A stretch of DNA of 64,000 nt from Candidatus Yonathbacteria bacterium RIFOXYD1_FULL_52_36. Its GTDB lineage: Bacteria; Patescibacteriota; Minisyncoccia; Phycocordibacterales; UBA1539_B. Shown here in pieces: positions 14,281 to 56,710 of this stretch; position 1 is the stretch's first letter, and every line of letters begins with the position of its first letter. A model generated the notes under the pieces. That model was not told the origin of the DNA. It saw only the letters and a list, made by a program, of their open reading frames with translations, and did not search any database. Location of the stretch: contig MHUZ01000034.1 in assembly GCA_001823605.1 (NCBI GenBank), positions 38,589 to 102,588 of the forward strand, given 5' to 3'. Both the position numbers and the translations under genes were made by a program.

Positions 14281-14318
14281 CCAGAAAACGGCTCACCCAG
14301 GGGTGAGCCGTTTTCTGG
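14281..14318. repeat. AACGGCTCA-family palindromic terminator (copy a), 17-bp stem: CCAGAAAACGGCTCACC-CAGG-GGTGAGCCGTTTTCTGG
   Basis: Read directly from the sequence. Lies 3' of the 794-aa gene and upstream of rpsS. Confidence 0.85.
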
Positions 14319-14374
14319 GCCGTTTCGAGCCTTCTCTCTCGACATGTAGGCCGGGAGCCTTACGGCTTCTACCC

Positions 14375-16759
14375 CTACCGCGGCCTGATCGCGCCAATAT
14401 TAAATTCGCTCGTGTCGGTTGCACTGATACAGCCAGGGTCGGCATCGGCTGGGGTGCCCGCACCGTTAAAATCAGTGTAGCCGTCACTATCGTTGTCGAT
14501 ACCATCACTACAAACTACGTCAGTGAATTGCGTCGAGGAGTCATTTTCGTCATCATCGCTGGAGTCCACACAGCCGGGATCAACCAAAGAGGCGTCGCCG
14601 GTGCCATCATAGTCAATGAATCCGTCGCCGTCATTGTCAGTGTTGTCTACGCACTGCACAGCCACGCAGTACTCCCCATCCCAAACATTACTGCTCCCAC
14701 ACATGGCGGCGGGATAGATCTCAAGGAGCACATCAGTACCATTGCGTGCTTGGATCGTATTCTCCCCGTAGACGATCTCTTTAATTTGCCCAACAGAAGA
14801 CCCTGTCACATACAGTTCTCCTGTTGTTTGGTTGTAGAAGTTCGGAGAAAGCGCGTCGGTAACAGTTCCCACAACGTACGACCAGCACGTACTCATTCCA
14901 CGCGCGATAGTGCAATCGTACGCAGAAAGCGTTGCACTGGGCACAATGGGTGTAGTCGATTCGGTCACGACCACGTCTACCCAGGGGCTGCAGTTGTCAT
15001 TTTCGCTTGTTTCCGGGATGCTGTTGGAACTATCGGCACACGCGCGCATGGAGTAGGTGCCTGCAGTCGGGAATATGTATGAAATACTGCTCACCGCACT
15101 GGTACCACTTGCAAGCGCTGCCCTAGATATCAAGAACTCCTGGATCGTACCCAAACCGTCACTCTGGCTTGCCAGCTCAATCTTGTTCACGAAAGAATTA
15201 CCTGTCGATGCGGCTCCCTCGTTCGTGATGGTCGCAGAGAATGCCGTTGTCTTGCCGGCGAACGCAGTAGTTGGAGCTACTGAAGAAGCCTTGAGGTTGG
15301 ACATGGAGACCGTGACATTTCCCCATGTACTACAATTATTTGATTCATCGGACTCGGCAATGACTCCTCCGTCCGTGCTTGATGACTTGTCAGCACACGC
15401 GCGCATGGAATAGGTGCCTGCTGTCGGGAATGTGTATGCTTTATCTTTTGGGGAAACCGACCCCACATTACTGAGTACGGGGTGCGTCGATGCAGAAAGG
15501 TCTGTGATTCCTCCGTTGCCATCTGCAAGACTTGCCACCTGGAAAAAATACGGGAAGCTTGTGTCGGTGCTTGCGGTACCGTTGTTGTAGATAATTGCTG
15601 AGAATGTCGTGGAGACGCCCGCAATAACGTTTGTGGGCATGGAATACATATTCGCAGTAAGGTCAGGGATACCCAGCCCGCCCGTGACTGTGACCGTGTC
15701 TGATGCGGTTAAGACCGTACCGTCTGTTGCAATACACTGAACAGTAAATACCGTCTTGTCATAAAGAGGAGTCACGGTTGTGTCGAATCCTGCAGTTGCG
15801 TTGCCGGTTTGAAAACCAGAGTCTGCGCCAGAGATCACACTGCACGATGTCGTGTCTCCAGAATCCCAACCCACACTAATGACGTCACCCTTGGAAACAG
15901 TCTTGTACACTGGACCATACGTGAACGCAGTAACATCAACGAACCTCACTTCCGGAGAGACGTACGGGGGCGGAGCCTCACGCTTTTGAATCCTACCTAC
16001 ATCAAAGTTGTTGTCTGCTCCTCCTACAATATACACATTACCTAGGTCATCTGGCTCCATAGAGTATGGTCCATACCAAAGTTGTGCCGCCTCTCCTTGT
16101 ACGGTGTATGGTCCGTAAGTATATTTCGTCATCCATTCCCCTTTGGGAATAGAGTATATTACCCTATTAACAACTCCTTCAGTTGCAGCCTCAATTTGAA
16201 GGTAACTAGGCCAGCTCGAGTTAAAACCTGTATACGTACTGTTCTGCTCAAGAGACAAACTAGTGCGTGAATAGTTGTCATAGACATTACGCATCTTGGT
16301 ATTGTTATCTCCAGCTAAATCATTTACGTCGAAATCTGGACTGGGATCAACATAAACGGAGACAAGACCAAGGTCACTTTTCCTCCTAATCTCCCACGAA
16401 CCTCCCCACATAGATATTTTTATATTATCACTACCATCAAAAGACACATACCTAACTCCATAGGGAGCTACACTTGTTACCTTTGAAAGCAGTGCTCCAC
16501 TACTAGGTGACCACTTTTGAACCAGAGGGGTTGTTACTGTGTAAAAAAAGTAACCGTATCTATTTCTTCCTGTATATACACCAGTTGCATCTGCAGCAGC
16601 GTCAGAAAAATTATCCCCCGCTGAGTCGATTGACCAAATTAAGTCCCCAAAGGCTGCCGATGCCTGCGTGTACCCCGTAAAAAATATCCCTGCGGCAAGC
16701 AGTATGCTTCCTACTGCTGAAAAAATCTGCTTCTGTAGGTAAGTAGTGTTCATGGTCAT
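14375..16759 (-). CDS. large secreted surface protein with beta-propeller-like repeats, two CARDB-like domains, MopE/TSP3-like Ca or metal-binding repeats (CxDGxDNDxDG...DPGC) and a conserved C-terminal tail ...DPGCISATDTSEFNIGAIRPR
   Basis: N-terminal signal peptide (MTMNTTYLQKQIFSAVGSILLAAGIFFTGYTQASA). CARDB-like YTFPTAGTYSMRACAD...NNC modules occur twice. The acidic DNDGDG repeats and C-terminal tail are shared with the 56731-60204 protein. Confidence 0.75.
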   Translation of the reverse strand: MTMNTTYLQKQIFSAVGSILLAAGIFFTGYTQASAAFGDLIWSIDSAGDNFSDAAADATGVYTGRNRYGYFFYTVTTPLVQKWSPSSGALLSKVTSVAPYGVRYVSFDGSDNIKISMWGGSWEIRRKSDLGLVSVYVDPSPDFDVNDLAGDNNTKMRNVYDNYSRTSLSLEQNSTYTGFNSSWPSYLQIEAATEGVVNRVIYSIPKGEWMTKYTYGPYTVQGEAAQLWYGPYSMEPDDLGNVYIVGGADNNFDVGRIQKREAPPPYVSPEVRFVDVTAFTYGPVYKTVSKGDVISVGWDSGDTTSCSVISGADSGFQTGNATAGFDTTVTPLYDKTVFTVQCIATDGTVLTASDTVTVTGGLGIPDLTANMYSMPTNVIAGVSTTFSAIIYNNGTASTDTSFPYFFQVASLADGNGGITDLSASTHPVLSNVGSVSPKDKAYTFPTAGTYSMRACADKSSSTDGGVIAESDESNNCSTWGNVTVSMSNLKASSVAPTTAFAGKTTAFSATITNEGAASTGNSFVNKIELASQSDGLGTIQEFLISRAALASGTSAVSSISYIFPTAGTYSMRACADSSNSIPETSENDNCSPWVDVVVTESTTPIVPSATLSAYDCTIARGMSTCWSYVVGTVTDALSPNFYNQTTGELYVTGSSVGQIKEIVYGENTIQARNGTDVLLEIYPAAMCGSSNVWDGEYCVAVQCVDNTDNDGDGFIDYDGTGDASLVDPGCVDSSDDDENDSSTQFTDVVCSDGIDNDSDGYTDFNGAGTPADADPGCISATDTSEFNIGAIRPR

Positions 16760-17511
16760 TAGGGCATTAGGTAAATCTTCGTTGCGTTGAACCTGTTGAT
16801 CGAGTACACATTCCCCTCACCCCAAGCGGTCACCTGCGCTCCCGCCACAATGTCGCTCATTGTTTTTCCTTCCAAAAACTCCGTGGTCGGGGTAATGGTG
16901 ATCGTGTATCGCTTCGTGACATACGGGACAGTGAACGAGCCACTTGATGTATCGAGACTATCCAGCTTTTCTTCATCGGCAACTTCTGTCTCGATAGTCA
17001 ATGTCTTTCCTCTAACACTGAGTACCTTCCCCGCGATCATGTCGCGTTGTGTAACCTCGTTGATGACTTGTGTTTTGAGATCAAAACGCTCCACGGACAG
17101 CGCCGTGGGGTGATCGGTCTCGTAAATACTTGCGGATAGCACGGTTTTAACGATCAAGCCCGTGGTAATCTCATTCTTCATGAAACCAACGTATGATGTC
17201 TCGGGACTGAGGTTGATAGTGATCTCACGGTCAGAAAACTGAAGTGGTGTCCTTTTTCGCACAGACTCCTCAACAGTATCGACGTCCCCAACTTGAGTTT
17301 TTATGGTGATCGTCGTATCGGTAATCGCCACGACCGTGCCTTCGATATGTGTGCCGCTTGCAATGAGCTCCTGACGAACCTGTGCGGTCAATTCTTCAAC
17401 ACCCATGCCTTGGGGTTCTGGAGTGCGCATGAGGATAAATGCGACGGCCACAACGAGAACCATGAGCCCTACAATGAATACACCCGGCCGTTCTTTTATT
17501 TTTTGAAACAT
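16759..17511 (-). CDS. N-terminally membrane-anchored hypothetical protein, translationally coupled (ATGA overlap) to the downstream surface-protein gene
   Basis: Start at MFQKIKERPGVFIVGLMVLVVAVAFIL (one TM helix), followed by a Thr/Val-rich extracytoplasmic region. Confidence 0.6.
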   Translation of the reverse strand: MFQKIKERPGVFIVGLMVLVVAVAFILMRTPEPQGMGVEELTAQVRQELIASGTHIEGTVVAITDTTITIKTQVGDVDTVEESVRKRTPLQFSDREITINLSPETSYVGFMKNEITTGLIVKTVLSASIYETDHPTALSVERFDLKTQVINEVTQRDMIAGKVLSVRGKTLTIETEVADEEKLDSLDTSSGSFTVPYVTKRYTITITPTTEFLEGKTMSDIVAGAQVTAWGEGNVYSINRFNATKIYLMP

Positions 17512-17582
17512 AGAGAAAGCTGATTTGATTATGTATCTATATAGTACCCCGCGCCAAGAGAAGCGCGGGTGTGGATAACAAA

Positions 17583-28186: not shown

Positions 28187-29041
28187 TTATCGCACCCGCC
28201 AGATAGTTTTTCCGTCGCTTTTAAAAATGATCGTGCCTTGATCGGCGGTGTTTAAAACTTCGATGTCTGCTTCTTGAAATGTATCGAGAGTTTCCTTGTG
28301 GGGATGGCCATAGGAATTGTTGCTGCCGGAAGAGATGACTGCCGTCTGTGGACTGACTGCCGCAACAAATTCCGGAACACTCGACGTGCGCGAGCCATGA
28401 TGTCCTGCTTTTAAAATATCGCTGTTGACCTTCTCTCCGTCGAGCACGAGCACGTATTGTTCTATCTCGTCCGGTGCATCACCTGGAAACATCACGGACG
28501 TATCGCCGTAGATCAATCGCCCCACGATCGAGCCGGTGTTGGTCGTAACGCCTGAAACATCTCGATCGGGGAACAGCACTTCAAAGTGCGCGCCGCCCCC
28601 AAGGTCGATCACGGTCCCGCGCCGTGCCACGATACGCGTAGCATGGGTGTCTCCTTTTTGTTTCAGAGCCTCATACACGCCGGATGCGCCGATGGTTCCC
28701 GGCTCTACCACCGCGCCGATCCCATACCGCTCAAGAAGCGGAATGAATCCGGCAATATGATCCTTGTCCGGATTTGAAACAAGGATCACATTCACGGTGC
28801 GGTCAAAGAACGGCATCACCTCTGCAAGCGAACGGAGCATCCCACGGTCGGGTCCGCCGTCGATCAACATATCGCCACCGCCCGGCGCACGCACATAGAT
28901 CGCGTCCCCTTGTCCCACGTCGAGAAACGCAATGGTGAGGAGACGCGCATCAGCGCGATACGCTAGATACTGCCATCCAACAAGCGCACAAAAAATACTT
29001 CCCCCAATAACGAAAGCGGTGATCCGGTACGCATTCTTCAT
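28187..29041 (-). CDS. ComEC/Rec2-related metallo-beta-lactamase domain protein, encoded separately from the channel part
   Basis: N-terminal TM then LDVGQGDAIYVRAPGGGDMLIDGG and HHGS motifs of the ComEC C-terminal lactamase_B domain. Confidence 0.8.
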   Translation of the reverse strand: MKNAYRITAFVIGGSIFCALVGWQYLAYRADARLLTIAFLDVGQGDAIYVRAPGGGDMLIDGGPDRGMLRSLAEVMPFFDRTVNVILVSNPDKDHIAGFIPLLERYGIGAVVEPGTIGASGVYEALKQKGDTHATRIVARRGTVIDLGGGAHFEVLFPDRDVSGVTTNTGSIVGRLIYGDTSVMFPGDAPDEIEQYVLVLDGEKVNSDILKAGHHGSRTSSVPEFVAAVSPQTAVISSGSNNSYGHPHKETLDTFQEADIEVLNTADQGTIIFKSDGKTIWRVR

Positions 29042-29043
29042 TC

Positions 29044-29700
29044 ATGAATGGTACAATGCGACGTATGAGCGAAGCAACTATTGAAATGATCATCATCGCC
29101 GCAAGCTACGGCGGCATATTCCTCATGATGATCTTGAATGGCGCGGTAAGCTTCCCCTCAAGTCAGGTCCTCTACATTTTGGTGGGGTACTTCATTGCGC
29201 GCGGAGACCTCGCGCTTGTGCCCGCGGTCATTGCAGGCAGCATCGGCAACATGATCGGCAATATGATCCTCTACGAGATCGCGCGACGCAAGGGCATCGA
29301 GTACATCACGCGCTTCAAACTCTTCCCTCCCGAGATCACTCGTCGCACTGAGATCGCATTCAAAAAACGCGGGGCGTGGTTTGTCTTTGTGGGGAAACTG
29401 CTTCCTGCGATCAAAGTGTTCGTGCCGATCCCTGCCGGTATCGGCAAAATGCACCGCGGGCTTTTTGCTGCGATCATGGTCGTTGCTACGAGTATTTGGG
29501 TACTTCCCTTCACTGCTGTGGGATACTACTTCGGAAAATCGCGTGATGTCTTTGGCGCATACGCATTCGTGCTTCTTGCGATCGCGATCGTGGTCGTCGC
29601 ACTCTTCTTCCGTTATTTAAAGAGCAGTGATGTGGAGCGAGAACTCACCGCACTCGACGAGGGAGAGAGTCGCCACACCAACACGCCGAGTGCTCCGTAG
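29044..29700 (+). CDS. DedA/SNARE-associated family membrane protein
   Basis: Polytopic membrane protein with DedA-like layout. 3' end overlaps the convergent comEC channel gene by 88 nt. Confidence 0.7.
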   Translation: MNGTMRRMSEATIEMIIIAASYGGIFLMMILNGAVSFPSSQVLYILVGYFIARGDLALVPAVIAGSIGNMIGNMILYEIARRKGIEYITRFKLFPPEITRRTEIAFKKRGAWFVFVGKLLPAIKVFVPIPAGIGKMHRGLFAAIMVVATSIWVLPFTAVGYYFGKSRDVFGAYAFVLLAIAIVVVALFFRYLKSSDVERELTALDEGESRHTNTPSAP

Positions 29701-39856: not shown

Positions 39857-40321
39857 TTAAAAAACATTCGTGAGATAGGTCGAAACAGTTCGCGTCGTGG
39901 TCGCTGTACGGTCCCAGAAGCTTACCGTTACGGTTACCTTGCGCGTGTTTGGATCAACAGTACCGCCCACGGCAACAATATCATCACTCAGATCACGCGA
40001 TACATCATTGAGCGTGATCGAGCGTTCGAACACCCCATCAACAAACCCTGTGTCGGTCGTACTTGTGGCAAACGCAGTCCCGTTAAAAGCGAGGTAGTAC
40101 ACCGTGCCGTCAGCAGGTGCGCCCACGTTCGCCCAGCCGGTATCGCGGAAAAATCGAGCCACCTCGATCCCCTCTTCGAGCAAAAAACTTGCCTGTACGA
40201 TCTGCGCTGTTGTTCGACTCACCTGAAGTGACGACTGGTAGTACGCGGAAATCCCTACGAGCGACGTCGCAAGGATCGCACTTCCCACAATGATCTCAAT
40301 GAGTCCGAATCCACGATGCAT
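39857..40321 (-). CDS. type IV minor pilin
   Basis: GFGLIEIIVGSAILATSLVGI prepilin signal. Confidence 0.7.
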   Translation of the reverse strand: MHRGFGLIEIIVGSAILATSLVGISAYYQSSLQVSRTTAQIVQASFLLEEGIEVARFFRDTGWANVGAPADGTVYYLAFNGTAFATSTTDTGFVDGVFERSITLNDVSRDLSDDIVAVGGTVDPNTRKVTVTVSFWDRTATTTRTVSTYLTNVF

Positions 40322-40355
40322 AAATATGCTTTTAGTATACACCTCCCCAACACTC

Positions 40356-40817
40356 TTACGAAGAACTCGCCACCCCCGTTCCATTCACGGTGATCGTACG
40401 CGTCTTTGCGGTATCGTTCGTGACGCGGATCACGAACGTGCCGTTCTGTGATGTTTTGCCGGTCAACCGATCAAATAGTACATTCTGTCCGCCTCCCGTA
40501 AGCGTGATCGAGGTGATCTCGAGCGCGCCATCAAGCACAACGTCTTGATTATTCGAATCAGAACTTGAATACGTCGCGCCCTGATAGATCACCGCTTTGT
40601 CTGCTTGGAGGTGTACGCCATATTGGAGGCCATCTTTTGAGGAAAGCGTATCTCCGCGCGCCTGCGAGAGTGCAGTAAGCACGTCTTCTACTGCCGTATC
40701 GAGCACCTTGCTGTTGCGAAATGCGGAAAACGAAGAGAGCACGATCGCTGACAACACCGCAAGGACCGCAACGACGATCAGGAGCTCAAGCAACGTAAAA
40801 CCTTTTTTAGTGAACAT
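40356..40817 (-). CDS. pilA: type IV major pilin (PilA-like)
   Basis: MFTKKGFTLLELLIVVAVLAVLSAIVLSSF canonical prepilin leader plus G/FTLxE. Confidence 0.8.
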   Translation of the reverse strand: MFTKKGFTLLELLIVVAVLAVLSAIVLSSFSAFRNSKVLDTAVEDVLTALSQARGDTLSSKDGLQYGVHLQADKAVIYQGATYSSSDSNNQDVVLDGALEITSITLTGGGQNVLFDRLTGKTSQNGTFVIRVTNDTAKTRTITVNGTGVASSS

Positions 40818-40823
40818 ATGCTC

Positions 40824-42035
40824 CTAGATATTATTCATGACCGAATACATCGGCGAGATCATCGAGATCGCAAAGAATCCAACGCCACCTCCGATCACGA
40901 GCATGAGGATCGGCTCAATAATGGTTGCCATGTCTTTCGTCGCCGCTTCAACCTCTGCTTCGTAGAATGACGCAACGCGCATGAGCATTTCTGAGAGCTT
41001 GCCGGTCTCCTCACCCACTTCGACCATCTCGCCCACCAGGATCGGGTAGATATTGTCTGCCTCTGCGAACGCCACTGAGAGCGCGGTTCCTTTTTGCACG
41101 CCCTGCGATGCCTTTTCGAGCACCTCTTTGTAGTATGAATTCTGGAGCACATCACGCGTAATGTTGATGGACTCGATAATATCCACGCCGGAAGAAAGGA
41201 GCGAGGAAAGCGTGCGCGCGGTGAGCGCCGAGTTTGCTTCTTTGGCGATCCCCGAGACCACCGGCATGTGGAGCACGAACCACTCAAAACTGCGCCTGCC
41301 TCTCGGCGTACGGAGCGCCATGATAAAACCTGTTACCAACACCACGAATCCCAGCAACACCCAAAGCCCATAATTCTGGAGACTATCGCTTATAAAAATG
41401 ATTGCCTTGGTCGAAGCAGGAAGATCACCACCGATCTCCTTGAATGTCCCAATGAGCGTGGGCACCACATAAATGAACATGAGGACCGCAATGATGAGCA
41501 TTGCCGAGATGACCACCGAAGGATAGATCATCGCGCCCTTGATCTTCTTGCGTAGGTTGTAGCTTTTTTCAAGCTGGTTGCCGATCACCGTAAGCGCCTG
41601 TGAAAGGTTGCCTGACTCTTCTCCTGCGCGCACCATGGAAACAAAGAGCGTCGAGAACACCTTTTCGTGCTTGCCCATCGCGTCGGAGAGACTGTTACCT
41701 TTGCTGATCTCTTCGTTTAGGTCGTGGAGGATGCCCTTGAACTTTATGTTCTGGGTTTGCTTCTCAAGGACCGAGAGTCCGCGCGAAAGTGAAAGCCCTG
41801 CATCGATCATCGCCGAAAGATTTTTGGCGAACACGATACGGTCCTGCATCTTGATACGCGTGAGGTACTTGCTCACGTCAATATTCATACCCTTCTTCTC
41901 GACCTCATCGATCGCGATCACCTCTTTGCCTTGTGCTTTGAGCTCTTTGGCGAGCGCGAACTTGTCCGCCGCGTCAGAATCCCCCTCAGTGATTGCGCCG
42001 GAACTTTCTCGTACTTTGTAATGGAATGTAGACAT
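40824..42035 (-). CDS. pilC: type IV pilus assembly platform protein PilC (GspF family)
   Basis: Two T2SSF repeats. 403 aa. 3 TM segments. Confidence 0.85.
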   Translation of the reverse strand: MSTFHYKVRESSGAITEGDSDAADKFALAKELKAQGKEVIAIDEVEKKGMNIDVSKYLTRIKMQDRIVFAKNLSAMIDAGLSLSRGLSVLEKQTQNIKFKGILHDLNEEISKGNSLSDAMGKHEKVFSTLFVSMVRAGEESGNLSQALTVIGNQLEKSYNLRKKIKGAMIYPSVVISAMLIIAVLMFIYVVPTLIGTFKEIGGDLPASTKAIIFISDSLQNYGLWVLLGFVVLVTGFIMALRTPRGRRSFEWFVLHMPVVSGIAKEANSALTARTLSSLLSSGVDIIESINITRDVLQNSYYKEVLEKASQGVQKGTALSVAFAEADNIYPILVGEMVEVGEETGKLSEMLMRVASFYEAEVEAATKDMATIIEPILMLVIGGGVGFFAISMISPMYSVMNNI

Positions 42036-42039
42036 GGGA

Positions 42040-43794
42040 TTATTCGGACACCACGCGGAAGATCTCTTCGATGCTCGTGAGCCCCTTCGCGGCTTTATAG
42101 ATACCGTCTTCGATCATCGTGATCATCTCTTCTTTCTTTGCCTGCGTTTCGATCTCGGCGGCCGTGGATCCCTTGATCACCAGCTCTTTGATCGTGGGCG
42201 ACATTTTCAAAATCTCGTGGATCCCGATGCGTCCCTTGTAGCCATCTTCACACTCATCTGATTTTTTCGCACGATAGAACGGAATGTCACCCCAATCCTG
42301 ATCATCCTTGATGATCTTCTCTTCTTTGAGCACGCCGAGCACGCGATCAAGGTCAATGATCTTGCTGAGACGTGCGATCTCATCATCGTTAAGCAAATAG
42401 CGTTCTTTGCCCGCGTCACACAAACGGCGCACGAGGCGCTGTGCAATGATCACGTTGACCGTCGAAACAATAAGGAACGGCTCAACACCCATGTCGATCA
42501 TGCGCGGGATCGCACCCGCAGCAGAGTTGGTGTGGAGTGTCGAGAGCACCAGGTGTCCCGTGAGTGACGCGTTGATTGCGAGCGATGCCGTTTCTTGGTC
42601 ACGCACCTCTCCCACCATGATGATGTCCGGGTCTTGACGCATGAGCGTACGGAGGCCGTTCGCAAAGGTGAGGCCGATCTCCGATTTCACCTGCGTCTGA
42701 TTCACGCGCGCCATTTGGTATTCGATCGGATCCTCGATCGTCGAGATGTTCACCTCGGGCGTATTCAAAATATCGAGCATTGTATAGAGCGTCGTGGTCT
42801 TTCCTGATCCCGTCGGTCCTGTGGTGAGGAGGAGTCCCACCTTTTGCTTCATGGCATCATGGATGCGCTCAAGTCCTAGGCCGTGAAAACCAAGGCCTTC
42901 GAGCGTAAATCCTGACGATGAGTCCCTCAAAAGACGCATGACGGTCTTTTCACCAAAGTATGTCGGGAGTGTCGAGACGCGGAACGATACTTTCTGATCG
43001 GCGGTCTCGATCTTGAAGCGTCCGTCCTGAGGAAGACGCTTTTCATCGAGCTTCAAGTTCGAAAGCACCTTCAAGCGTGCCGTAATGCCCGGAGCCACAT
43101 CTTTGGGGAGCACCATCGCGTCATGGAGAATGCCGTCAATGCGATACCGAATGACCATTTGTCCTTCCATCGGCTCGATATGAATATCTGACGCTCCCTG
43201 CAGAATGGCGTGGTTGAGCAGCGTATCCACGATCTTCACGATCGGCAGATCTTCAGCAAGCTCTTTCAGGTCTTTTTCTGACTTCTCGCCCCCTTCTTCA
43301 TCCGAAAGCGATTTTACCGATACGGCTTCTTTCTGAATGATGTCACCGAATTCTGACTTGAGGTCTTTTTGGTATTGGACGAGCGCCCCTTTGAGCGAAT
43401 CCTGATCGGTGAGACGGGGGAGAATCTTGAGTCCCACCTTTTTCTTGACGAATTCGATGGCCGTCAGGTTGTCGGTGTCGAGCATCGCCACCTCGAGCGC
43501 CGTGGTGGTCTTTTTGAACGCCACAATGTTGTGTTTGCGGGCGATCGGCTCCGGGATCATCGAAAGCACTTCAAAATCGATCTTCTGACCTTTGAGTGAG
43601 ACGAAGGGGATGCCGAGAATGTACGCTTCTGTTCGGCGCAGATCGTCTTCAGTGACTTTGCCATCGCTTACCAAAATTTCACCGAGGTAGCGCCGTTTGT
43701 CGTGCGCCTTCTTGAGGGCAGCATCAAGGTCAGACGAGGGAATAAGTCCCGCATCGAGGAGAAACTCACCAAGTTGTTCGTCGCGAACGTTCAT
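42040..43794 (-). CDS. pilB: type IV pilus assembly ATPase PilB (GspE family)
   Basis: N-terminal T2SSE_N domain. Walker A TGPTGSGKTTTLY, Asp and His boxes, tetracysteine motif. Confidence 0.9.
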   Translation of the reverse strand: MNVRDEQLGEFLLDAGLIPSSDLDAALKKAHDKRRYLGEILVSDGKVTEDDLRRTEAYILGIPFVSLKGQKIDFEVLSMIPEPIARKHNIVAFKKTTTALEVAMLDTDNLTAIEFVKKKVGLKILPRLTDQDSLKGALVQYQKDLKSEFGDIIQKEAVSVKSLSDEEGGEKSEKDLKELAEDLPIVKIVDTLLNHAILQGASDIHIEPMEGQMVIRYRIDGILHDAMVLPKDVAPGITARLKVLSNLKLDEKRLPQDGRFKIETADQKVSFRVSTLPTYFGEKTVMRLLRDSSSGFTLEGLGFHGLGLERIHDAMKQKVGLLLTTGPTGSGKTTTLYTMLDILNTPEVNISTIEDPIEYQMARVNQTQVKSEIGLTFANGLRTLMRQDPDIIMVGEVRDQETASLAINASLTGHLVLSTLHTNSAAGAIPRMIDMGVEPFLIVSTVNVIIAQRLVRRLCDAGKERYLLNDDEIARLSKIIDLDRVLGVLKEEKIIKDDQDWGDIPFYRAKKSDECEDGYKGRIGIHEILKMSPTIKELVIKGSTAAEIETQAKKEEMITMIEDGIYKAAKGLTSIEEIFRVVSE

Positions 43795-43914
43795 GGGTGC
43801 TTTGGTCAAAGTATACCACGACAATTCGCGCAACGCTGGGGATTAGTATGATTTTCCGATCATGCAAAAATCCCAGAAGATCATTCTGGGGAGGTCCTGG
43901 CTTCTCCAGGGAGA

Positions 43915-45432: not shown

Positions 45433-45477
45433 AACAAACGGCTCAGCGTAGCTGAGCCGTTTGTTGAGCCGTTTAAT
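45433..45477. repeat. AACGGCTCA palindrome (copy d) with an extra right half-site. Its 26-bp core is identical to copy e.
   Basis: AACAAACGGCTCAGC-GTA-GCTGAGCCGTTTGTT then GAGCCGTTTAAT. Confidence 0.85.
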
Positions 45478-45497
45478 CCATTGCAAATACTGGCTTT

Positions 45498-45956
45498 TTA
45501 CCGGATCGTATAAAACACGTCCTTGCCGGTGGTGCCGTGCTGGCGGATATGTCCTTCTTGTTCAAGCTCGTGGAGATACCGCTCCGCGCTCGCGTCAGAG
45601 ACGCCGAGCAGAGCTTCTACATCGTTATTTTGCACTTGACCGCGCTCGGTGATGAGCGCTAAGACCCGCGCCTTGCGCGCTTCTTTCTCGGCATTCGGTT
45701 CTTTTGCATACACCACTGTCTTGGGTGCGCTTCCCTCCCCATCCTCGATCACGTATGCCGGAAGCTTGCCGCTTGCCATGAGCCAGACCACAGAACCGGA
45801 GCCCACGAACACGAGTGTGAAGAACAGATACTCTGCCGTGCCCATCTCAGGTGCTCCGGCAAAGAATTGCTTGTACGTAACAAAAAGCCAAATAGCGACG
45901 AACAACGGCGGCACGAACCGCTTCTGCCACGCCGGCAAATATACGTTCTTTTTCAT
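45498..45956 (-). CDS. membrane protein with C-terminal winged helix-turn-helix domain
   Basis: Two TM helices then a DeoR/MarR-like wHTH (ERGQVQNNDVEALLGVSDASAERYLHELEQEGHIRQ). Confidence 0.55.
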   Translation of the reverse strand: MKKNVYLPAWQKRFVPPLFVAIWLFVTYKQFFAGAPEMGTAEYLFFTLVFVGSGSVVWLMASGKLPAYVIEDGEGSAPKTVVYAKEPNAEKEARKARVLALITERGQVQNNDVEALLGVSDASAERYLHELEQEGHIRQHGTTGKDVFYTIR

Positions 45957-46100
45957 GTGATTATTGTACCGCAAAACTCCCCAGTAAATCCACAGGCTGT
46001 CCCCAAAAATCACGTCAGGGCATGATTTTGCAGCCCACGGGCTTGATATAATTTAGTTACTGGGATTAGTCGAGCCAGTACAATAAGGAACGAATAGCGT

Positions 46101-46280
46101 ATGGCAAAATATTACCTGAAGAAGGACGTGCGAGGCCAATACTACTGGATTCTCAATTCCAAGAATGGGGAAACAGTTTGCATGAGTAGTGAATCCTACC
46201 TATCCAAGGAGGGAGCAGAAAAATCCCTTAAATGGAACCAGGCAAACGGAAAAACTACTTCTGTTATCGATCTTGCATGA
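46101..46280 (+). CDS. YegP-like (DUF1508) small protein
   Basis: 59 aa, MAKYYLKKDVRGQYYWILNSKNGETVCMSSESYLSKEGAEKSLKWNQANG. RBS AAGGAA. Below the ORF-track length cutoff. Confidence 0.55.
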   Translation: MAKYYLKKDVRGQYYWILNSKNGETVCMSSESYLSKEGAEKSLKWNQANGKTTSVIDLA

Positions 46281-46415
46281 CACAAGAGGTTAATTGAGCA
46301 AACGTGCCGGGCTATAGAGATCCCGCGGAGAAGGAGAATTGATTGTGTCACGGCTACTCACCTACGGAGCTAGAAAAGCACACCTCGTTCATGGTAAAAC
46401 CCACGAAAGTGGGTT

Positions 46416-46970
46416 TTACCATTTTAAGTATTGTTTTGCCTCAACTAAGACCGCATTGCGCACTGCCTTACAGAGATTTAGTAATTTTGTTTGCTCGAGA
46501 ATCATAAAATCATTCTTTTTAGGCGTAAGTACTCCGTACCTCAAAGACTCGACTGGGTAAACCCTGATAATCTCGTTACTTAAATAAAAATCAAAGTAGT
46601 GGTGATTGAATGTTTTCCCGTTACTCTTTTGTTTAGAAAGTTTCACTTTCTTTACCCCTGCGGTTAACATAAAATCTTCACCGACCCCTTGATAATGATA
46701 TATATGATCTAACTCGTGACCAAAAGCTGACGCTCTTTTATTTATTTCCTCAATATCAAGGTTATCGTATTTCTCCCAACGCAAACACATAAACGATTTG
46801 GCATACAACTCAAGAGCATTAGAAGCAAGGAATAAGTAGGCTCCTCCAGCATCCGAAACATCATTTTTTGTCTTTTCCATCAGCGAAACACATTCGGACG
46901 CAAATTTAAAAGTTAGGTAGCGAGCTAAAAATAATTCTGCAATCTTTTTTGCATCGTTATTATTTTTCAT
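46416..46970 (-). CDS. low-GC hypothetical protein with a possible HEPN-like Rx5H motif (RASAFGHELDH)
   Basis: 184 aa, AT-rich codon usage unlike the core genome. Family call is tentative. Confidence 0.45.
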   Translation of the reverse strand: MKNNNDAKKIAELFLARYLTFKFASECVSLMEKTKNDVSDAGGAYLFLASNALELYAKSFMCLRWEKYDNLDIEEINKRASAFGHELDHIYHYQGVGEDFMLTAGVKKVKLSKQKSNGKTFNHHYFDFYLSNEIIRVYPVESLRYGVLTPKKNDFMILEQTKLLNLCKAVRNAVLVEAKQYLKW

Positions 46971-47052
46971 GATTTTAAAATAAATTAAAATTATCTATTT
47001 GTATGTTTTTATACAACTCAAATAAAAATTCAATGCGGGATTCTTTGGTGGG

Positions 47053-47829
47053 CTATCTCCATCCACGCCCCCTTTTTACTATTTTTTCGTGTGTCTGCTT
47101 CTTGGGGCATGCCGTTAGGCTTGTTTCAAATTGCTCATTGCACACCGAGCATATACACATGCCTTCCTTTCCTAAAAGCGGAGCTCCATTAATCTCATAC
47201 AGCAGGATCAAAAAATCCCTCAAGGTCACGCTCGCCCACTCACAAAAATTTTTAGTTAATTGAACTTTATACGATCTGCGCCCTTTCCATTTATACTTAT
47301 ATATGCGAACCGCGCCTTTGCGATTTTTACTTAAACGTTTAAAGGCAGCAAATGATTTTTCATCCTTCCCTACAAAATCATAGCCATCATTATGTGCAAA
47401 AAAATTCCTTATTTTATTTAAATCAGTAACCTTTTCCAATTCCTGCGGAATAACCCCATTGCATACACTCTCCAAATACTTAAAAGATCGCCAAGTTCCA
47501 TTCCCATCAAGATCTCGCACCTTAATGTTATGTACCTGCTCTTCCATTACGCACAGATTGGCAAGATATCTTTCAAAATCACTGTAGAGCACAAGGAGGT
47601 ACGCGCCATACCAGTGATTTAAATTTGCAAAATTAGCCCAATGCTGATCTGCTTCTCGTTCCAGCAACAACCTCCTGCTTTTTGAGATACTGCCATAATG
47701 TTCTGTAAAAATGCTCAAGTACTCTGACTTACGATGATTTATATTCTCGTCGATGAGATTAAGCAGATCGAAATGCTTTGAAAGAAAGTCTTCTTCAATC
47801 CACTTTACTTCGCTTTGATCCAAAAACAT
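47053..47829 (-). CDS. Abi_2/HEPN-like abortive-infection-family protein
   Basis: IRNFFAHNDGY matches the RNxxAH (Rx4-6H) HEPN/Abi_2 motif. Low GC. Cys-rich C-terminus. Confidence 0.55.
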   Translation of the reverse strand: MFLDQSEVKWIEEDFLSKHFDLLNLIDENINHRKSEYLSIFTEHYGSISKSRRLLLEREADQHWANFANLNHWYGAYLLVLYSDFERYLANLCVMEEQVHNIKVRDLDGNGTWRSFKYLESVCNGVIPQELEKVTDLNKIRNFFAHNDGYDFVGKDEKSFAAFKRLSKNRKGAVRIYKYKWKGRRSYKVQLTKNFCEWASVTLRDFLILLYEINGAPLLGKEGMCICSVCNEQFETSLTACPKKQTHEKIVKRGRGWR

Positions 47830-47842
47830 ACAAGGGGTAAAG

Positions 47843-50593
47843 CTAAGTTACTGCTACCATCTTTCTTTTTACGGAAGTTTTCTTGTTTTCGCTTGCAGTG
47901 TATTTGCAATACAGTTCAAACAGGAACTCGATTCTCTCCTCTTTATTCGAAAACTTTTTGCCGTAGCAGGCGTCAACAGCGCGGTCGAGGTCGGTGTGGG
48001 CTTTGACCAGGTCGGGTGGCATTGTGTTGGGGTCATAGAGATCAGCGAGAGAACTCTCGGGAAACCGAGCTCGCGCATCGAGTACTCTTTGCGCACACTC
48101 CTCTACTTTTTTCCTGTGCTCGTCCGACACACTCTCGGGCCATGGAAAATTATTGTAAACGATATCTTTTGAGTAGCGATACCGACTTTCAAGCCGTCCG
48201 CAGGTGTATCTCACCCATGTCATATGCATAAGTGACTGCAAGATACCAAGGTGAAACAAGGTCGCCCCAGACCCGATAAGGCAGAGGTTGCTCGTAATAA
48301 CACTCTCATCCATAAAACCCAAGGGGATATAAGCCCTCCTTTCCGATGAGACACTGGGAATAAGCAGATATCGCCCATTTGGAAAATTTTCTACATGGAA
48401 TCGTGTCGGCGTTTCCGCAAGTTTTTGCGTTGGTGGACTCACGCTATCTAATCGAAGTTTTCGCACAGCTTCAATGCGCTTTAATACTTCAGGCATTTCA
48501 CGTAATTCATGGGGCGGAGTATCTCCAAGCCACAAACACCAACGCTCATACCCATTCAAGAACTCATCTGCTCCGATCCACTTACGAAACAATTTCTCAC
48601 TTTTTGGCTCATGTTTTATAAATTCATTCTTTTCCTCGGGTGTAAAAAGGTAATTCCCACCATCGATCGGCTTGTTCCCAATTCCGATATTTGGAACATC
48701 TTCCACGATCGGCTTCGAGCGTGATTCCACAAACACGTCTTCGCCTGCAACAAGATATGCATTAATATGCTCCACCTCTTTTTCCTTCGGCTCGCTTTTT
48801 ATCGTCTCATATTCGTAGAGATATTTCTTTGGAGTATCCACGCACGCAAAGCCAACAATCACGCAGTACACCGCCGCCACCCCTGGCGCGTCATTGTTCC
48901 ACTTGAAAGTCTGGTGCGCAAAATGAATAATGATGCCGTATTTTTCTTTGAGACGCTTCCACAGAATACCCACTTGCTCACCTTGGCAGATCGAGTTGGT
49001 GGACACAAACGCAGTTTTGATATTGGTGCCAACCATATACCTTGACGCCTTTTCATACCACGCTGTTACAAAATCGAGATTACCTGCGCCTTTTGCATTA
49101 TCAAAGATATTAAGAAATGCTTCTTTTTGTTCTTTTTCCATTAACCGTGCTCCAACAAACGGCGGATTGCCAAGAATATACGAGAGTTTGTGTTTTGGCA
49201 CAACCTCTTCCCAATCTTTTGTAAGCGCATTGTCGTTCACGATCGTCGCGGGCTCACGAAGCGGGATGCGTGCGTACGGCTTGCCAAACTTCTCTGACAA
49301 AAGCTGGTTCATTTGATGATCGGCGAGATACATCGCTACGCGGGCGATCAGTGCGGGAAATTCTTCGATCTCTATTCCGTAGAACTGATTGACGTTGATG
49401 CGCGAAATGTCTTCAACCCCCAATATTGCTATCTGGTCGTCTTTTTTCTTTCGCAAAAGAATTTCGAGTTCCAGTTTTCGCAGTTCACGGTACGCAACAA
49501 CGAGAAAGTTTCCACACCCGCACGCAGGATCAAGAAACGTGAGGTTTGCAAGCTTATTGTGAAACGCATCGAGCTTCTTGGCGTCATACTTCACCTGATC
49601 GAATTCAACATGCAATTCATCAAGAAAGAGCGGTTGAATGACCTTCAAAATATTCTTTTCGGAAGTGTAGTGCGCACCAAGTTGCCTGCGTGTGTTCTCA
49701 TCCATCATCCCTTGGAACAGGGATCCGAAGATTGATGCAGATATCTGTGACCAATCAAAACTACAACATTTCAATAACTTGAGATACGCGGTTGCGTCCA
49801 AGGAAACAGGCGCGATCTGCTCTGCGAAAATACCGCCGTTGATGTATCCGAACATCATCAACTGCTCGTCTAAATTTGTCTGCCTCTTTTCCTTTGGCGT
49901 ATTGAGGATGTGGAAAATTTGCATCAGATGAATCCCCAGATCGGACCCGTCGTGATTGATTCGATTTTCTACGTATGAGCGAAAATGATTTTTAGGGAAA
50001 ATACCTGTGTCGTCGGCAAAAAGACAAAAGAGGATGCGGATGAGAAAAACTTCGAGGTCGTGCCCACTGTACCCCGTCTTGGCAAGTTCGTTATGGAAAT
50101 CAGCCATCAACTTCACGGCTTCAATGCTCACCTCCTCTTCTTTTTCGTAGGCGCGGACAGTGTATCCAGATATAAACCCAAAGAGATCTATGTTTTTGTG
50201 GAGCTCTTTAAGTAAAAATTCTTCTTGAGTGTTCTTGTCCAGATCGTACAATCGTATTTTTTCAAAGTCAGAAACGACTACATAGCGCGGAAGTTCCACG
50301 TCTTTCAACCCGGGGAAATAATCCTTCGCTTGTGTGTACGCCTTGTCCAAATTTTTGCCGCGAGTTTTGTGTTCCGCAAGCATCACGCCTTTCCATAGAA
50401 CATCAATGAATCCCTGTGCCCCACCCTGCTTTTTTACAAAGTGCTCAAAGGAAGCGACGCGTCGGCGTGGAACGCCAAACACCTCAAAGAAGCCGTCCCA
50501 AAAGCTTTTTGCCTCTGCGTCTTCGTTGGATTCTTGCTCCCATTCGTGCGCAAAGGTGATTGCGCGATTTCGGATTTCGTTGATGCTTATCAT
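47843..50593 (-). CDS. MmeI-family type IIL/IIG restriction-modification enzyme (fused endonuclease, N6-adenine methyltransferase and TRD)
   Basis: N-terminus MISINEIRNRAITFAHEWEQESNEDAEAKSFWDGFFEVFGVPRRRVASFEHFVKK closely parallels MmeI. Methyltransferase motif IV LGNPPFVGA. 916 aa. Confidence 0.85.
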   Translation of the reverse strand: MISINEIRNRAITFAHEWEQESNEDAEAKSFWDGFFEVFGVPRRRVASFEHFVKKQGGAQGFIDVLWKGVMLAEHKTRGKNLDKAYTQAKDYFPGLKDVELPRYVVVSDFEKIRLYDLDKNTQEEFLLKELHKNIDLFGFISGYTVRAYEKEEEVSIEAVKLMADFHNELAKTGYSGHDLEVFLIRILFCLFADDTGIFPKNHFRSYVENRINHDGSDLGIHLMQIFHILNTPKEKRQTNLDEQLMMFGYINGGIFAEQIAPVSLDATAYLKLLKCCSFDWSQISASIFGSLFQGMMDENTRRQLGAHYTSEKNILKVIQPLFLDELHVEFDQVKYDAKKLDAFHNKLANLTFLDPACGCGNFLVVAYRELRKLELEILLRKKKDDQIAILGVEDISRINVNQFYGIEIEEFPALIARVAMYLADHQMNQLLSEKFGKPYARIPLREPATIVNDNALTKDWEEVVPKHKLSYILGNPPFVGARLMEKEQKEAFLNIFDNAKGAGNLDFVTAWYEKASRYMVGTNIKTAFVSTNSICQGEQVGILWKRLKEKYGIIIHFAHQTFKWNNDAPGVAAVYCVIVGFACVDTPKKYLYEYETIKSEPKEKEVEHINAYLVAGEDVFVESRSKPIVEDVPNIGIGNKPIDGGNYLFTPEEKNEFIKHEPKSEKLFRKWIGADEFLNGYERWCLWLGDTPPHELREMPEVLKRIEAVRKLRLDSVSPPTQKLAETPTRFHVENFPNGRYLLIPSVSSERRAYIPLGFMDESVITSNLCLIGSGATLFHLGILQSLMHMTWVRYTCGRLESRYRYSKDIVYNNFPWPESVSDEHRKKVEECAQRVLDARARFPESSLADLYDPNTMPPDLVKAHTDLDRAVDACYGKKFSNKEERIEFLFELYCKYTASENKKTSVKRKMVAVT

Positions 50594-50676
50594 GGGATGA
50601 TCTCCAGTTTTTGACTAGACCTCCTATCCAAACCGTTTCTTCATAATCCCACAAAATAAGCCTTAAATCAACGGCG

Positions 50677-50718
50677 GAAAACGGCTCAGGGAACGGCTCA
50701 GCGTAGCTGAGCCGTTTA
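50677..50718. repeat. AACGGCTCA palindrome (copy e) with an extra left half-site. Mirror of copy d.
   Basis: AAAACGGCTCAGGG then AACGGCTCAGC-GTA-GCTGAGCCGTTTAA. Confidence 0.85.
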
Positions 50719-53471: not shown

Positions 53472-54362
53472 ATGACATCGACAGATAAAAAATTGGGTAT
53501 CGCACTTGCGCTCGTCGGCGCACTTGCGTTCGGAGCATCGGCATTCGCGGAGGAAATGTCGACTGACGGCTCAGTGAGCGTTGACGCTACCGTAAAGACG
53601 GAGGCCACGGTAACAGCACCGACCCCGGAAGATGTACGCGCGAAGATGGAAGCACGCGCACGTGAAGCGCGCGAACTTGCCGAGAAGAAACGCCTAGAGG
53701 CAGAAGCAAAGCGCGGTGAATTGCAGGCAAAAAAGGCCAGCACCACGCAAATGATCGCGGAAAAGCGCACGGTCATGGAGCAGAAGCGTGAAGATTTTCA
53801 AGACAAGCGTGCAAGCACGACGGAGGCCTTGAAAGGAAAGCGTGAGGAATTGCAGGTAAAGCGTGCAAGCACCACCGAGGCTATCAAGCAAAAGCGTGAG
53901 GAAGTGCGCAACAACCTTGAAGAGAAGCGCAAAGAGATCATCCTTGCGCACGCAAACCGCATGGAGGAACGTTTCAACGCCGCCTTTGACCGCTTCGACA
54001 AACTTGCCGATCGCATCGAGGAACGCTTGATCAAACTTGAAGCAGCAAACAAAAATATCCAGACCGCAACGGCTCATTCGCTCGTTGACCAAGCTCGGCT
54101 CAAGATCGAAGAGGGACGGCTCCTTTCAGCAGAGCTCTCTGCTGAAGTAGAACTTGCGATAGTATCTGAGGACCCCAAGGCAGCATTCGACGGTGCACGT
54201 GGTGCCATAAACGAAGTTATCGGGGTAATGAAAACAGCTCAGAAGCTCTTGGTGGACGCAGTGAAGTCGATCAAGGCAAATACGCCTGACGAGCTCGAAA
54301 ATGACGATGACGACAACGGTTCAACCGCTACGACGACCACAGCCACAACAACGGCTCAGTAA
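53472..54362 (+). CDS. secreted coiled-coil repeat protein with Thr-rich C-terminus
   Basis: Signal peptide (KKLGIALALVGALAFGASAFA), triplicated KRASTTEA-x-K-x-KREE heptad-like repeats, ends TATTTTATTTAQ. Confidence 0.6.
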   Translation: MTSTDKKLGIALALVGALAFGASAFAEEMSTDGSVSVDATVKTEATVTAPTPEDVRAKMEARAREARELAEKKRLEAEAKRGELQAKKASTTQMIAEKRTVMEQKREDFQDKRASTTEALKGKREELQVKRASTTEAIKQKREEVRNNLEEKRKEIILAHANRMEERFNAAFDRFDKLADRIEERLIKLEAANKNIQTATAHSLVDQARLKIEEGRLLSAELSAEVELAIVSEDPKAAFDGARGAINEVIGVMKTAQKLLVDAVKSIKANTPDELENDDDDNGSTATTTTATTTAQ

Positions 54363-55995: not shown

Positions 55996-56057
55996 CTTGC
56001 TATTCACATCCCCCTCCTCGTATAATTGAGCGATACTCACTAACCCCATTTAATTCT

Positions 56058-56651
56058 ATGTCCTACCTCATCCCCACCGTCATCGAAAAATCACCGAACG
56101 GCGAGCGCGCGTATGATATTTATTCGCGACTCCTCAAGGAGCGCATCATTTTCCTATCGGGCGTGATCGACGATGACGCGGCAAACATTGCCATCGCCCA
56201 GCTCCTTTTCCTTGAGTCTGAGGATCCCAAGAAAGATATTTCGATCTACATAAACTCACCCGGGGGATCAGTGACTGCGGGCATGGCGCTCTACGACACC
56301 ATGCAACATGTTAAACCAGCCGTGGCAACGATCTGCGTCGGCATGGCGGCATCGATGGGTGCGGTGCTCCTCTCTGCTGGTGCCAAAGGTAAGCGCTTCA
56401 TCCTTCCCAACGCCGAAGTGATGATCCATCAGCCGCTCGGCGGTACTGAAGGCCAGGCGTCCGACATCGCCATCACCGCAAAACATATCTTGAAGATCAG
56501 AGAGAACCTGAATAAGATCCTTTCGAAAAATACCGGTAATCCGTTGTCGCAGATCGAAAAGGATACCGATCGCGACTTCTATATGTCAGCGGAAGAAGCA
56601 AAGAAATACGGCATCATTGACGAGATCTACAAGCCAAAGAATCCTCGTTAA
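56058..56651 (+). CDS. clpP: ATP-dependent Clp protease proteolytic subunit
   Basis: [19 protein letters not shown]...AASMGAVLL...MIHQP (Ser-His-Asp triad context). Confidence 0.95.
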
Positions 56652-56667
56652 GAAACCCTTTCACCAC

Positions 56668-56710
56668 AACAAAACAAACGGCTCAGCATTGCTGAGCCGT
56701 TTGTTTTGTT
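56668..56710. repeat. AACGGCTCA-family palindromic terminator (copy f) shared by convergent clpP and the giant surface-protein gene
   Basis: AACAAAACAAACGGCTCAGC-ATT-GCTGAGCCGTTTGTTTTGTT. Confidence 0.85.

Follow-up and report, generated by a model that had tools for sequence, protein, structure and literature searches.

DNA uptake sequences (DUS) and uptake signal sequences (USS), as present in Neisseria and Haemophilus, occur about once per kb, are evenly spread, lie in many cases isolated within genes, and use a word or dialect that is common to a family. Repetitive extragenic palindromic (REP) elements act as terminators or mRNA stabilisers and are also sites of rearrangement. Both kinds of repeat come into consideration for a palindromic element, built on the 9-nt word AACGGCTCA, in a 64-kb stretch (hereafter the window) of contig MHUZ01000034.1 from Candidatus Yonathbacteria bacterium RIFOXYD1_FULL_52_36, a groundwater member of the candidate phyla radiation (CPR; Patescibacteria). 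CPR bacteria have tiny genomes, and nearly all of them encode DNA-uptake genes. A first-pass annotation of this DNA proposed a DUS/USS-like signal, with a terminator family resembling REP elements or miniature inverted-repeat transposable elements (MITEs) as the alternative. The analysis presented here weakens the uptake-sequence idea without refuting it, and leads us to favour, with chances that we judge to be evenly balanced, a lineage-amplified, REP-like family of bidirectional terminator/insulator hairpins that spread by copying or inter-hairpin recombination and occupy operon ends and the edges of inserts.

ComEC-dependent natural transformation has been demonstrated in Saccharibacteria using synthetic linear DNA, and the retrieved passages of that work on the transformation of S. 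epibionticum make no mention of an uptake signal (PMC10633639). In a literature search no paper was found to pair the term DNA uptake sequence with Patescibacteria, the top-ranked matches from the broader CPR and Saccharibacteria literature contained neither 'uptake sequence' nor 'extragenic palindromic', and the matches to the 9-mer itself were unrelated primers. We know of no receptor such as ComP for AACGGCTCA.

Over-representation and architecture of the hairpins

The window contains 18 exact copies of AACGGCTCA on its two strands, compared with a mean of 0.58 and a maximum of 4 in 100 dinucleotide shuffles. This 31-fold excess, present on both strands, agrees with the at least 17 copies against well under 1 expected that had been reported before, and AACGGCTCA is the commonest 9-mer of the window, at 0.28 copies per kb. 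Variants with one mismatch are near chance (25 versus 15.8 +/- 4), indicating that the exact word is sharply preferred. Fourteen of the copies fall within six perfect hairpins, which have the extended core AAACGGCTCA(C/G)C in common, while the other four are isolated in genes; 14 of the 18 are in non-coding DNA, which makes up 13% of the window. The hairpins and the sites adjoining them are as follows.

14281-14318: motif hairpin 1; stem of 17 bp, loop of 4 nt; CACC sub-family; predicted -34 kcal/mol, z = -7.4
14316-14324, minus strand: degenerate third half-site AACGGCCCA, abutting hairpin 1
17581-17614: motif hairpin 2; stem of 15 bp, loop of 4 nt, A7/T7 flanks; CACC sub-family; predicted -22 kcal/mol
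27787-27823: motif hairpin 3; stem of 17 bp, loop of 3 nt; CACC sub-family
27831-27853, minus strand: unrelated canonical terminator AAAGCGGGGTATTGCCCCGCTTTTT, directly preceding hairpin 3 on that transcript
45433-45465: motif hairpin 4; stem of 15 bp, loop of 3 nt; CAGC sub-family
45465-45473, minus strand: extra half-site, abutting hairpin 4
50680-50688, plus strand: extra half-site, beside hairpin 5
50692-50716: motif hairpin 5; stem of 11 bp, loop of 3 nt; CAGC sub-family; z = -3.4
56667-56711: motif hairpin 6; stem of 21 bp, loop of 3 nt; CAGC sub-family; predicted -40 and -39 kcal/mol on the two strands

All six are perfect palindromes, with stems of 11-21 bp that are extended outward by A-rich and T-rich bases and loops of 3-4 nt; their predicted folding energies range from -21 to -40 kcal/mol, with z of about -7 to -9 for five of them. 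The common stem and the extra half-sites at hairpins 4 and 5 had been recognised correctly, as had the unrelated stems of other strong hairpins (51051, 53320, 54763 and 63274); in total, 6 of the 22 perfect hairpins of the window with a stem of at least 9 bp bear the motif. Of the A/T-tract flanks that had been described, a canonical long T-run (U-tract) is seen only in hairpin 2 (17581-17614), the T-rich tails of the other five being interrupted.

Five of the six hairpins are at a gene 3' end. Hairpin 1 lies 57 nt 3' of a CARDB gene and upstream of rpsS, hairpin 2 begins 6 nt past the rplB stop codon, hairpin 3 is downstream of the gene for the metallo-beta-lactamase (MBL) part of ComEC (28187-29041) and of an open reading frame (ORF) of 100 aa (27881-28183), hairpin 4 sits 3' of a gene for a protein with transmembrane and winged helix-turn-helix parts (TM+wHTH), where it is also the left bracket of a defence island, and hairpin 6 separates the convergent clpP (56058-56651, plus strand) and a 1189-aa CARDB/PKD/Vgb-like surface-protein gene (56731-60300, minus strand). 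The earlier placement of every hairpin at a gene 3' end does not extend to hairpin 5, at 50692, which is found between divergent starts, namely that of an MmeI-type gene (50593) and the promoter-like site (50775-50803) of a small ORF. At 27.8 kb a complete canonical terminator precedes hairpin 3, which is therefore dispensable for termination there, and the motif hairpin is thus not simply the local terminator.

Two sub-families can be told apart, the members of each being neighbours: CACC at 14.3, 17.6 and 27.8 kb, and CAGC at 45.4, 50.7 and 56.7 kb. Hairpins 4 and 5 are moreover identical over 26 nt. Such neighbour-wise sub-families and 26-nt identical copies argue for copying rather than convergence by point mutation. 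In the reading that we favour, the hairpins are a genome-specific family and would act as bidirectional intrinsic terminators or insulators at the ends of operons and the borders of inserted blocks of genes, and their shared core would come from copying, not from independent evolution towards an uptake signal. New copies would be made by duplication, or else by template switching or recombination from one hairpin to another; such processes would be expected to produce neighbours that are nearly identical, full hairpins with truncated half-sites next to them, and pairs of hairpins around inserted DNA. We infer both the terminating or insulating role and the mode of copying from the arrangement described here.

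A scan of the whole window with Rfam 15 gave no match at the gathering score, and a tRNA scan of the window found none. Beside hairpin 5, a 66-aa ORF (50840-51040) has a perfect match to a TTGACA-17-TATAAT promoter and is followed by a strong unrelated terminator (51051-51078), with no Rfam match; the locus 50775-51078 may encode a small protein or a small RNA. Next to hairpin 6, the 1189-aa CARDB/PKD/Vgb-like gene carries four copies of TTCGTGCCGTCAAAGGCA (57714, 57831, 58191 and 58308), the members of each pair being 117 nt apart, in a region (window 57582-59715) that is an internal protein repeat; the length of this gene varies among strains from 1112 to 1189 aa. A second over-represented word, TGCCGTCAA(AGGCA), was discarded as it corresponds to an internal protein repeat of the same gene. 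The palindrome GATCGCGATC has four copies in the window (868, 29580, 39234 and 41910), versus 0.19 expected.

Distribution of the word in the genome and in close relatives

The uptake proposal made reference to the competence and pilus genes of the window, which are present where the first-pass annotation had placed them. They are listed here together with the four isolated copies of AACGGCTCA.

28187..43833, minus strand: competence/pilus genes, the context of the uptake proposal
28187-29041: ComEC, MBL part
29613-31139: ComEC, DUF4131 and Competence part (split ComEC)
33086-34855: RecJ
39337-40817: three pilin-like genes
40824-42035: PilC
42040-43833: PilB
42476..42484, plus strand: isolated AACGGCTCA in pilB; the coding (minus) strand reads GTT GAG CCG TTC, the conserved ATPase peptide VEPF
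54068..54076, plus strand: isolated AACGGCTCA in a 296-aa coiled-coil ORF (53472-54362), encoding T-A-H
54350..54358, plus strand: isolated AACGGCTCA in the final codons of the same coiled-coil ORF (..T-A-Q-stop)
59566..59574, minus strand: isolated AACGGCTCA in the 1189-aa surface-protein gene

Together with RNase Y, a short trigger factor and CARDB surface proteins, the split ComEC and the type IV pilus genes point to a CPR bacterium, and identical proteins occur in Rifle aquifer metagenome contigs and in the NCBI assembly GCA_036831865.1.

If AACGGCTCA were a DNA uptake sequence, a component of the type IV pilus/ComEC machinery would prefer DNA that carries it, uptake bias and recombination would spread the word, and inverted pairs would survive where they are usable as terminators. 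The excess on both strands, the preference for the exact word, the tandem half-sites and the inverted pairs at terminator positions, as in Neisseria and Pasteurellaceae, fit this proposal, and so do the absence of any target-site duplication or transposase in our searches, the competence genes, the transformation known from Saccharibacteria and the occurrence of the same core in several CPR classes among the matches listed below. Copies in coding sequences (CDS) also exceed expectation (4 versus 0.46 under a codon-order shuffle, P = 0.001). These four copies are nevertheless sparse, at 22% of all copies or about 0.07 per kb of CDS, much less than in Neisseria or Haemophilus, whereas the 14 others are non-coding, a balance that tends to speak against the uptake reading. 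The pilB copy at 42476, which had been overlooked when the remaining three were reported, is explained by protein conservation of the VEPF codons, and those at 54068 and 54350 are not independent, since three one-mismatch copies on the same strand share their repetitive coiled-coil gene.

The distribution of the word beyond the hairpins points in the same direction. The flanks of the same genome comprise 17.8 kb on the left and 8.8 kb on the right, 26.6 kb that bring the known total to 90 kb; in these flanks there is no copy of AACGGCTCA or even of its 8-mer, and none of their 14 strong hairpins has the motif. Window positions 1-14280 and 59575-64000 are likewise free of AACGGCTCA, so that all copies lie within 45 of the 90 kb known, and motif hairpins account for 6 of 18 hairpins inside this occupied part versus 0 of 18 elsewhere (Fisher p ~0.02). 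Such clustering departs from the fairly uniform genome-wide density of about 0.3-1 copies per kb that a DUS/USS-like signal would be expected to have. Related genomes were sampled by a metagenome scan anchored on ClpP, and hence blind to the motif, which gave 80 loci of related CPR contigs (835 kb; ClpP 66-88% identical). No motif hairpin was found in these 835 kb, where single copies of AACGGCTCA number 14 versus 6.25 expected, and no alternative word reaches a DUS-like density in the relatives' loci, although competence genes, nearly universal in the CPR, are expected there. The uptake reading is further opposed by the sub-families and the 26-nt identity, which indicate copying, and by the transformation of S. 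epibionticum with synthetic linear DNA, for which the passages retrieved from PMC10633639 mention no uptake signal. Compared with the pattern of Neisseria and Haemophilus, three of the four computable DUS/USS features are absent or only weakly present. Taken together, these data make a DNA uptake sequence doubtful here, and the REP-like terminator family, the alternative already named in the first-pass annotation, fits the tests best.

The hairpins at the clpP 3' end of nearly all relatives have unrelated stems. An exception is the locus L151, in which a one-base compensated variant of the core, AAACGGCTCG...CGAGCCGTTT, occupies this position. Perfect hairpins with an A-run and a GC stem are numerous in the relatives (339 in 835 kb, or 0.4 per kb), and in about 3 of the 27 long relative loci (L137, L156 and L205) inverted repeats with unrelated cores are themselves repeated as local families, which are hairpins in L137 and L156. 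Two ideas on the age of the element were set aside. A motif conserved across all CPR bacteria and bound by core machinery, an idea prompted by the CPR loci in the scan of species genomes described below, was rejected, as the unbiased 835 kb contain no motif hairpin, and ancient conserved positions (the clpP 3' end, upstream of nusA, near M50/rpsL) were likewise rejected, as most relatives have unrelated hairpins after clpP; because intergenic space is limited, the few positional matches at these places are roughly as expected.

The local families lie at 12467-14090 in L137, at 420-580 and 7647-7680 in L156 and at 26-4940 in L205, and their cores are, respectively, AAAGGCCCGAAC (three copies), GTGCAACAT (three copies) and pairs of CCCGTTAGA...TCTAACGGG with arms about 40-60 nt apart. 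An 11-mer hairpin arm, GACTGCTCGGC, is identical in three unrelated ClpP-anchored loci (L191, L209 and L215) and, given this identity, may be a conserved structured element. In a contig of the right flank (L129), a gene-free stretch with several hairpins at 19361-19600, some 6.6 kb beyond the right end of the window, contains a cluster of TTCACGTGAA, which we take to resemble the core of a parS site; L129 has three copies versus 0.03 expected, and further clusters are found in L183 (18647-19410), L194 and L197.

Inserts bracketed by hairpins

Two blocks of inserted genes are enclosed by motif hairpins.

14319..17580, minus strand: two-gene insert between hairpins 1 and 2 (gene calls, Pfam)
14208-14235, minus strand: promoter-like site TTGACA-16-TGnTAATAT between hairpin 1 and rpsS (consensus match only)
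45475..50678, minus strand: low-GC defence-type island of 5.2 kb between hairpins 4 and 5

The first insert, consisting of a DUF5666-like gene (16759-17511) and a gene for a CARDB surface protein of 794 aa (14375-16759), interrupts the S10 operon of ribosomal-protein genes between rplB (17620-18435) and rpsS (13771-14118), an otherwise universal junction. It is present in all ten contexts shown, which come from at least six samples, and the promoter-like site behind it could, as far as its consensus match goes, restart transcription of the downstream ribosomal genes. The second insert has a GC content of 34-55% in 500-nt windows, mostly below 48%, and encodes the TM+wHTH protein (45498-46013), a DUF1508 protein (46101-46280, plus strand), two HEPN-like proteins (46416-46970 and 47053-47829), in which RNxxxH motifs were seen by eye and no Pfam hit was obtained, and an MmeI-type restriction-modification enzyme (47843-50593). 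At its two ends stand 39-nt inverted (mirror-image) arrays with three half-sites each, together with a perfect direct repeat of 26 nt.

This arrangement raises the possibility that the hairpin is a recombination or integration site, which, as folded single-stranded DNA or as 25-45 bp of portable homology, would join foreign gene blocks to the chromosome, either through a hairpin-specific recombinase encoded elsewhere or through RecA-mediated crossover between hairpins after transformation. In addition to the two bracketed inserts and the repeats and mirror-image arrays at the island ends, the truncated half-sites resemble crossover scars, and sequence changes are seen close to the hairpins. 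The sequence of the strain L134, 99% identical elsewhere, parts from that of the window immediately beyond the wHTH gene's 3' end, beside hairpin 4, where it passes into a divergent allele, another motif hairpin (with GCCC as its inner stem) and unrelated DNA; some metagenome contigs of other samples (for example L222, L224 and L225) start or stop about 35-60 nt from hairpins 1 and 2. The two island brackets of L134 are, however, not identical to each other, no recombinase, integrase or transposase gene was found in or beside either insert, and a search for an empty site showed that every strain with an identical NusA or S19 protein carries both inserts. Elsewhere in the CPR the hairpins mostly flank housekeeping genes, and any terminator family would favour operon and insert edges anyway. 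We consider an integration site unlikely. As for the MITE alternative of the first-pass annotation, there are no target-site duplications at any hairpin or at the island ends, no direct repeats flank the hairpins, and no transposase was found, which leaves this alternative unsupported.

The MmeI-type enzyme of the island belongs to type IIL restriction-modification, and a Fic gene is located just outside the island (region 44126-50593). Elsewhere in the window, a 1.7-kb gap between tuf and fusA (21942-23642) contains three ORFs of 172, 165 and 77 aa, of which the two scanned, those of 172 and 165 aa, had no Pfam hit; there are no motif hairpins at the edges of this gap. A 919-aa VirD4/TraG-like coupling ATPase (DUF8128) is encoded at 1935-4694, with map and ndk as its neighbours.

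Recurrence of the core beyond this genome

When 185,579 species genomes were scanned with the pattern AACGGCTCA-N5-9-TGAGCCGTT, at least 119 loci were obtained. Among the matches listed, to which the following counts refer, 68 loci (about 50 assemblies) are labelled CPR, 44 non-CPR and 7 are unlabelled. Since the CPR makes up a small fraction of the scanned collection, CPR genomes are over-represented; they include many Parcubacteria/Paceibacteria groups, Saccharibacteria, Jacksonbacteria and a WS2 bin, and the GC content of those with the core in hairpins ranges from 30 to 64%. Two or more hairpins are present in 12 assemblies (11 CPR and 1 unlabelled, one of the 12 having eight) and in no non-CPR assembly. 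More than 60 nt away from the seeding hairpin, the 9-mer is found 18 times in CPR loci versus 3.3 expected, and away from the seed once in non-CPR loci versus 2.6 expected. The non-CPR matches look like ordinary A/T-flanked terminators, and several of them are orthologous copies of one terminator. Of the 78 hairpins of non-control loci, which include the 68 loci labelled CPR, 68 lie outside any long ORF, and copies in other genomes, for example in JBDRBW01, SCTV01 and JBAZXD01, form sub-families with common loops and flanks. Their neighbours in other CPR genomes are mostly ordinary housekeeping genes, no recurrent partner family or transposase was identified by Pfam among the 137 proteins that flank the 78 hairpins, and an all-versus-all clustering of ORFs within 1.5 kb of the hairpins revealed no recurrent family.

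It could be argued that the cross-lineage core reflects chance convergence within a small space of palindromes made of an A-run and a GC stem, with only the amplification within genomes being real. The 339 perfect hairpins in 835 kb of relatives support this view, as do several other 9-mer cores, AAAACCGCC and AAAAGCCCC among them, that are present in 3-5 unrelated loci each, the ordinary and partly orthologous terminators among the non-CPR matches, and a scan of viral contigs that gave 8 matches, about chance by a rough estimate. Part of the recurrence is indeed to be expected, because CPR hairpins are dense and other cores recur too. On the other hand, chance does not predict the assemblies with several hairpins, none of them labelled non-CPR, nor the excess of copies away from the seed, and ACGGCTC ranks second of 420 composition-matched 7-mers in the hairpin arms of the unbiased sample (2 versus a mean of 0.08). 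Chance convergence as the only explanation of the cross-lineage matches is very improbable.

A core kept exact by selection for binding has also been considered, with the hairpin serving as the site of a sequence-specific protein in some CPR lineages, be it as an RNA 3' hairpin or as extruded or duplex DNA; possible examples are a nucleoid protein and a factor acting in RNA processing, stability or termination. The core is exact while loops and outer stems vary, both here and in other CPR genomes, decayed copies are few, and the motif is seen again in CPR genomes of different classes and GC contents among the matches listed, all of which would suit such a protein. The same applies to the compensated variant of L151 at the same clpP 3' position and to the three motif hairpins that directly follow a small wHTH gene on its 3' side (those of the window, of the divergent allele of L134, and of L019). 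However, the invariance of the core in the fetched loci follows from the design of the search pattern, the loop or spacer of 3-9 nt argues against a dimer that binds duplex DNA, the sampled close relatives are without the element, which is unexpected for a conserved factor, and neither a co-occurring candidate protein among the 137 flanking genes nor an Rfam match was obtained. Binding by a dedicated protein is unlikely. The small wHTH protein itself was examined as a partner of the motif and kept as no more than a weak lead, true 3' adjacency being limited to L019 and the window's own alleles.

In hairpin-seeded loci only, a conserved two-gene module was observed in which a small TM+wHTH protein related to that at window 45498-46013 is followed by a Pro/Glu-rich protein with a wHTH (L014 4387-5254, L023 5096-6534, L064 95-706 and L019 1313-1591); the 'hairpin' of L064 is coding sequence of the Pro/Glu-rich protein (..PTAQPVEPLG..). 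Tandem runs of half-sites with a period of 8 nt, (AACGGCTC)n, were seen beside or inside hairpin arms at L046 3061-3100, L050 44-90 and L059 4695-4726; L046 and L059 are labelled CPR and L050 Omnitrophota, and the runs of L059 are symmetric on both arms.

Weighing the terminator family

Several observations do not sit easily with a REP-like family of terminator or insulator hairpins. Pfam scans of window ORFs and the precomputed Pfam annotation of the flanks revealed no RAYT/Y1 transposase (RAYT, REP-associated tyrosine transposase) and no other recombinase in the 90 kb, and the hallmarks of REP elements, an imperfect palindrome and a 5' tetranucleotide of the GTAG type, are absent from the 6 hairpins of the window and the 78 of non-control loci. 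A terminator role alone cannot account for every site, in view of the contexts at 27.8 and 50.7 kb. Almost no decayed copies exist, as if something maintained the exact word, and CDS copies are more frequent than the codon-order shuffle allows. To these are added, from the matches in other genomes, the wide range of GC content, the restriction of multi-hairpin assemblies to CPR or unlabelled genomes and the surplus of 9-mers away from the seeding hairpin. Two facts are explained least well by this family of hairpins, namely that decayed copies are nearly lacking and that the exact core is present in distant CPR genomes.

A broader idea is that AACGGCTCA might be a signal for exchangeable DNA across several CPR classes, that is, an uptake and/or recombination sequence in natural transformation. 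We regard it as a long shot. If true, AACGGCTCA would be the first known signal of the uptake type beyond Proteobacteria, the same core, sometimes amplified, in unrelated CPR genomes would have an explanation, and hairpin-bracketed cassettes of surface proteins or defence genes could move between these genomes. A self-recognition uptake signal would matter for gene flow in the CPR and for genetic tools, but the tests make this reading unlikely here. The feature is real and moderately interesting. These CPR genomes are dense in perfect bidirectional hairpins, in individual lineages one hairpin core is amplified, and such hairpins enclose inserted blocks of genes, even within the S10 operon, all of which helps to annotate transcription units and islands in CPR metagenomes and to explain contig breaks.

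Comparison with known systems

Like the DUS of Neisseriaceae and the USS of Pasteurellaceae, which are words of 9-12 nt, the element occurs on both strands and in inverted-pair terminators, and a type IV pilus and ComEC are encoded here too; in contrast to them, nearly all of its copies belong to hairpins, they cluster within 45 of the 90 kb, and no such hairpin occurs in the sampled relatives. The attC sites of integrons are palindromic hairpin sites at the 3' ends of promoter-less gene blocks, and inserts are bracketed here as well. The present elements are, however, much shorter, lack the R''/R' core (RYYYAAC/GTTRRRY) and extrahelical bases, and have their conserved part next to the loop, and no IntI or integrase domain was found in the Pfam-scanned window ORFs. 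With MITEs, such as the Correia elements of Neisseria, they share the character of small intergenic repeats with inverted termini that are able to affect transcription, but the unit of 25-45 bp is all palindrome, has no target-site duplications and shows no similarity beyond the palindrome within the genome.

In their A-rich 5' flank, GC-rich stem, short loop and T-rich 3' flank the hairpins resemble ordinary intrinsic terminators, including the other hairpins of this window and those of the relatives; they differ in that the six share a 12-nt inner stem, that stems are unusually long, reaching 21 bp, that one comes after a complete canonical terminator and that another lies away from any gene 3' end. 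In placement they are like REP elements and bacterial interspersed mosaic elements (BIMEs), associated with the RAYT transposase TnpA-REP, and like REPINs, which are likewise extragenic palindromes at gene 3' ends or between convergent genes and form genome-specific sub-families. The palindromes described here are perfect and without a GTAG-type tetranucleotide, no RAYT was found in the 90 kb or beside the 78 hairpins of other loci, and the core recurs across CPR classes. In conclusion, while not a demonstrated member of the RAYT-dependent REP class, this family of hairpins is REP-like in its behaviour.

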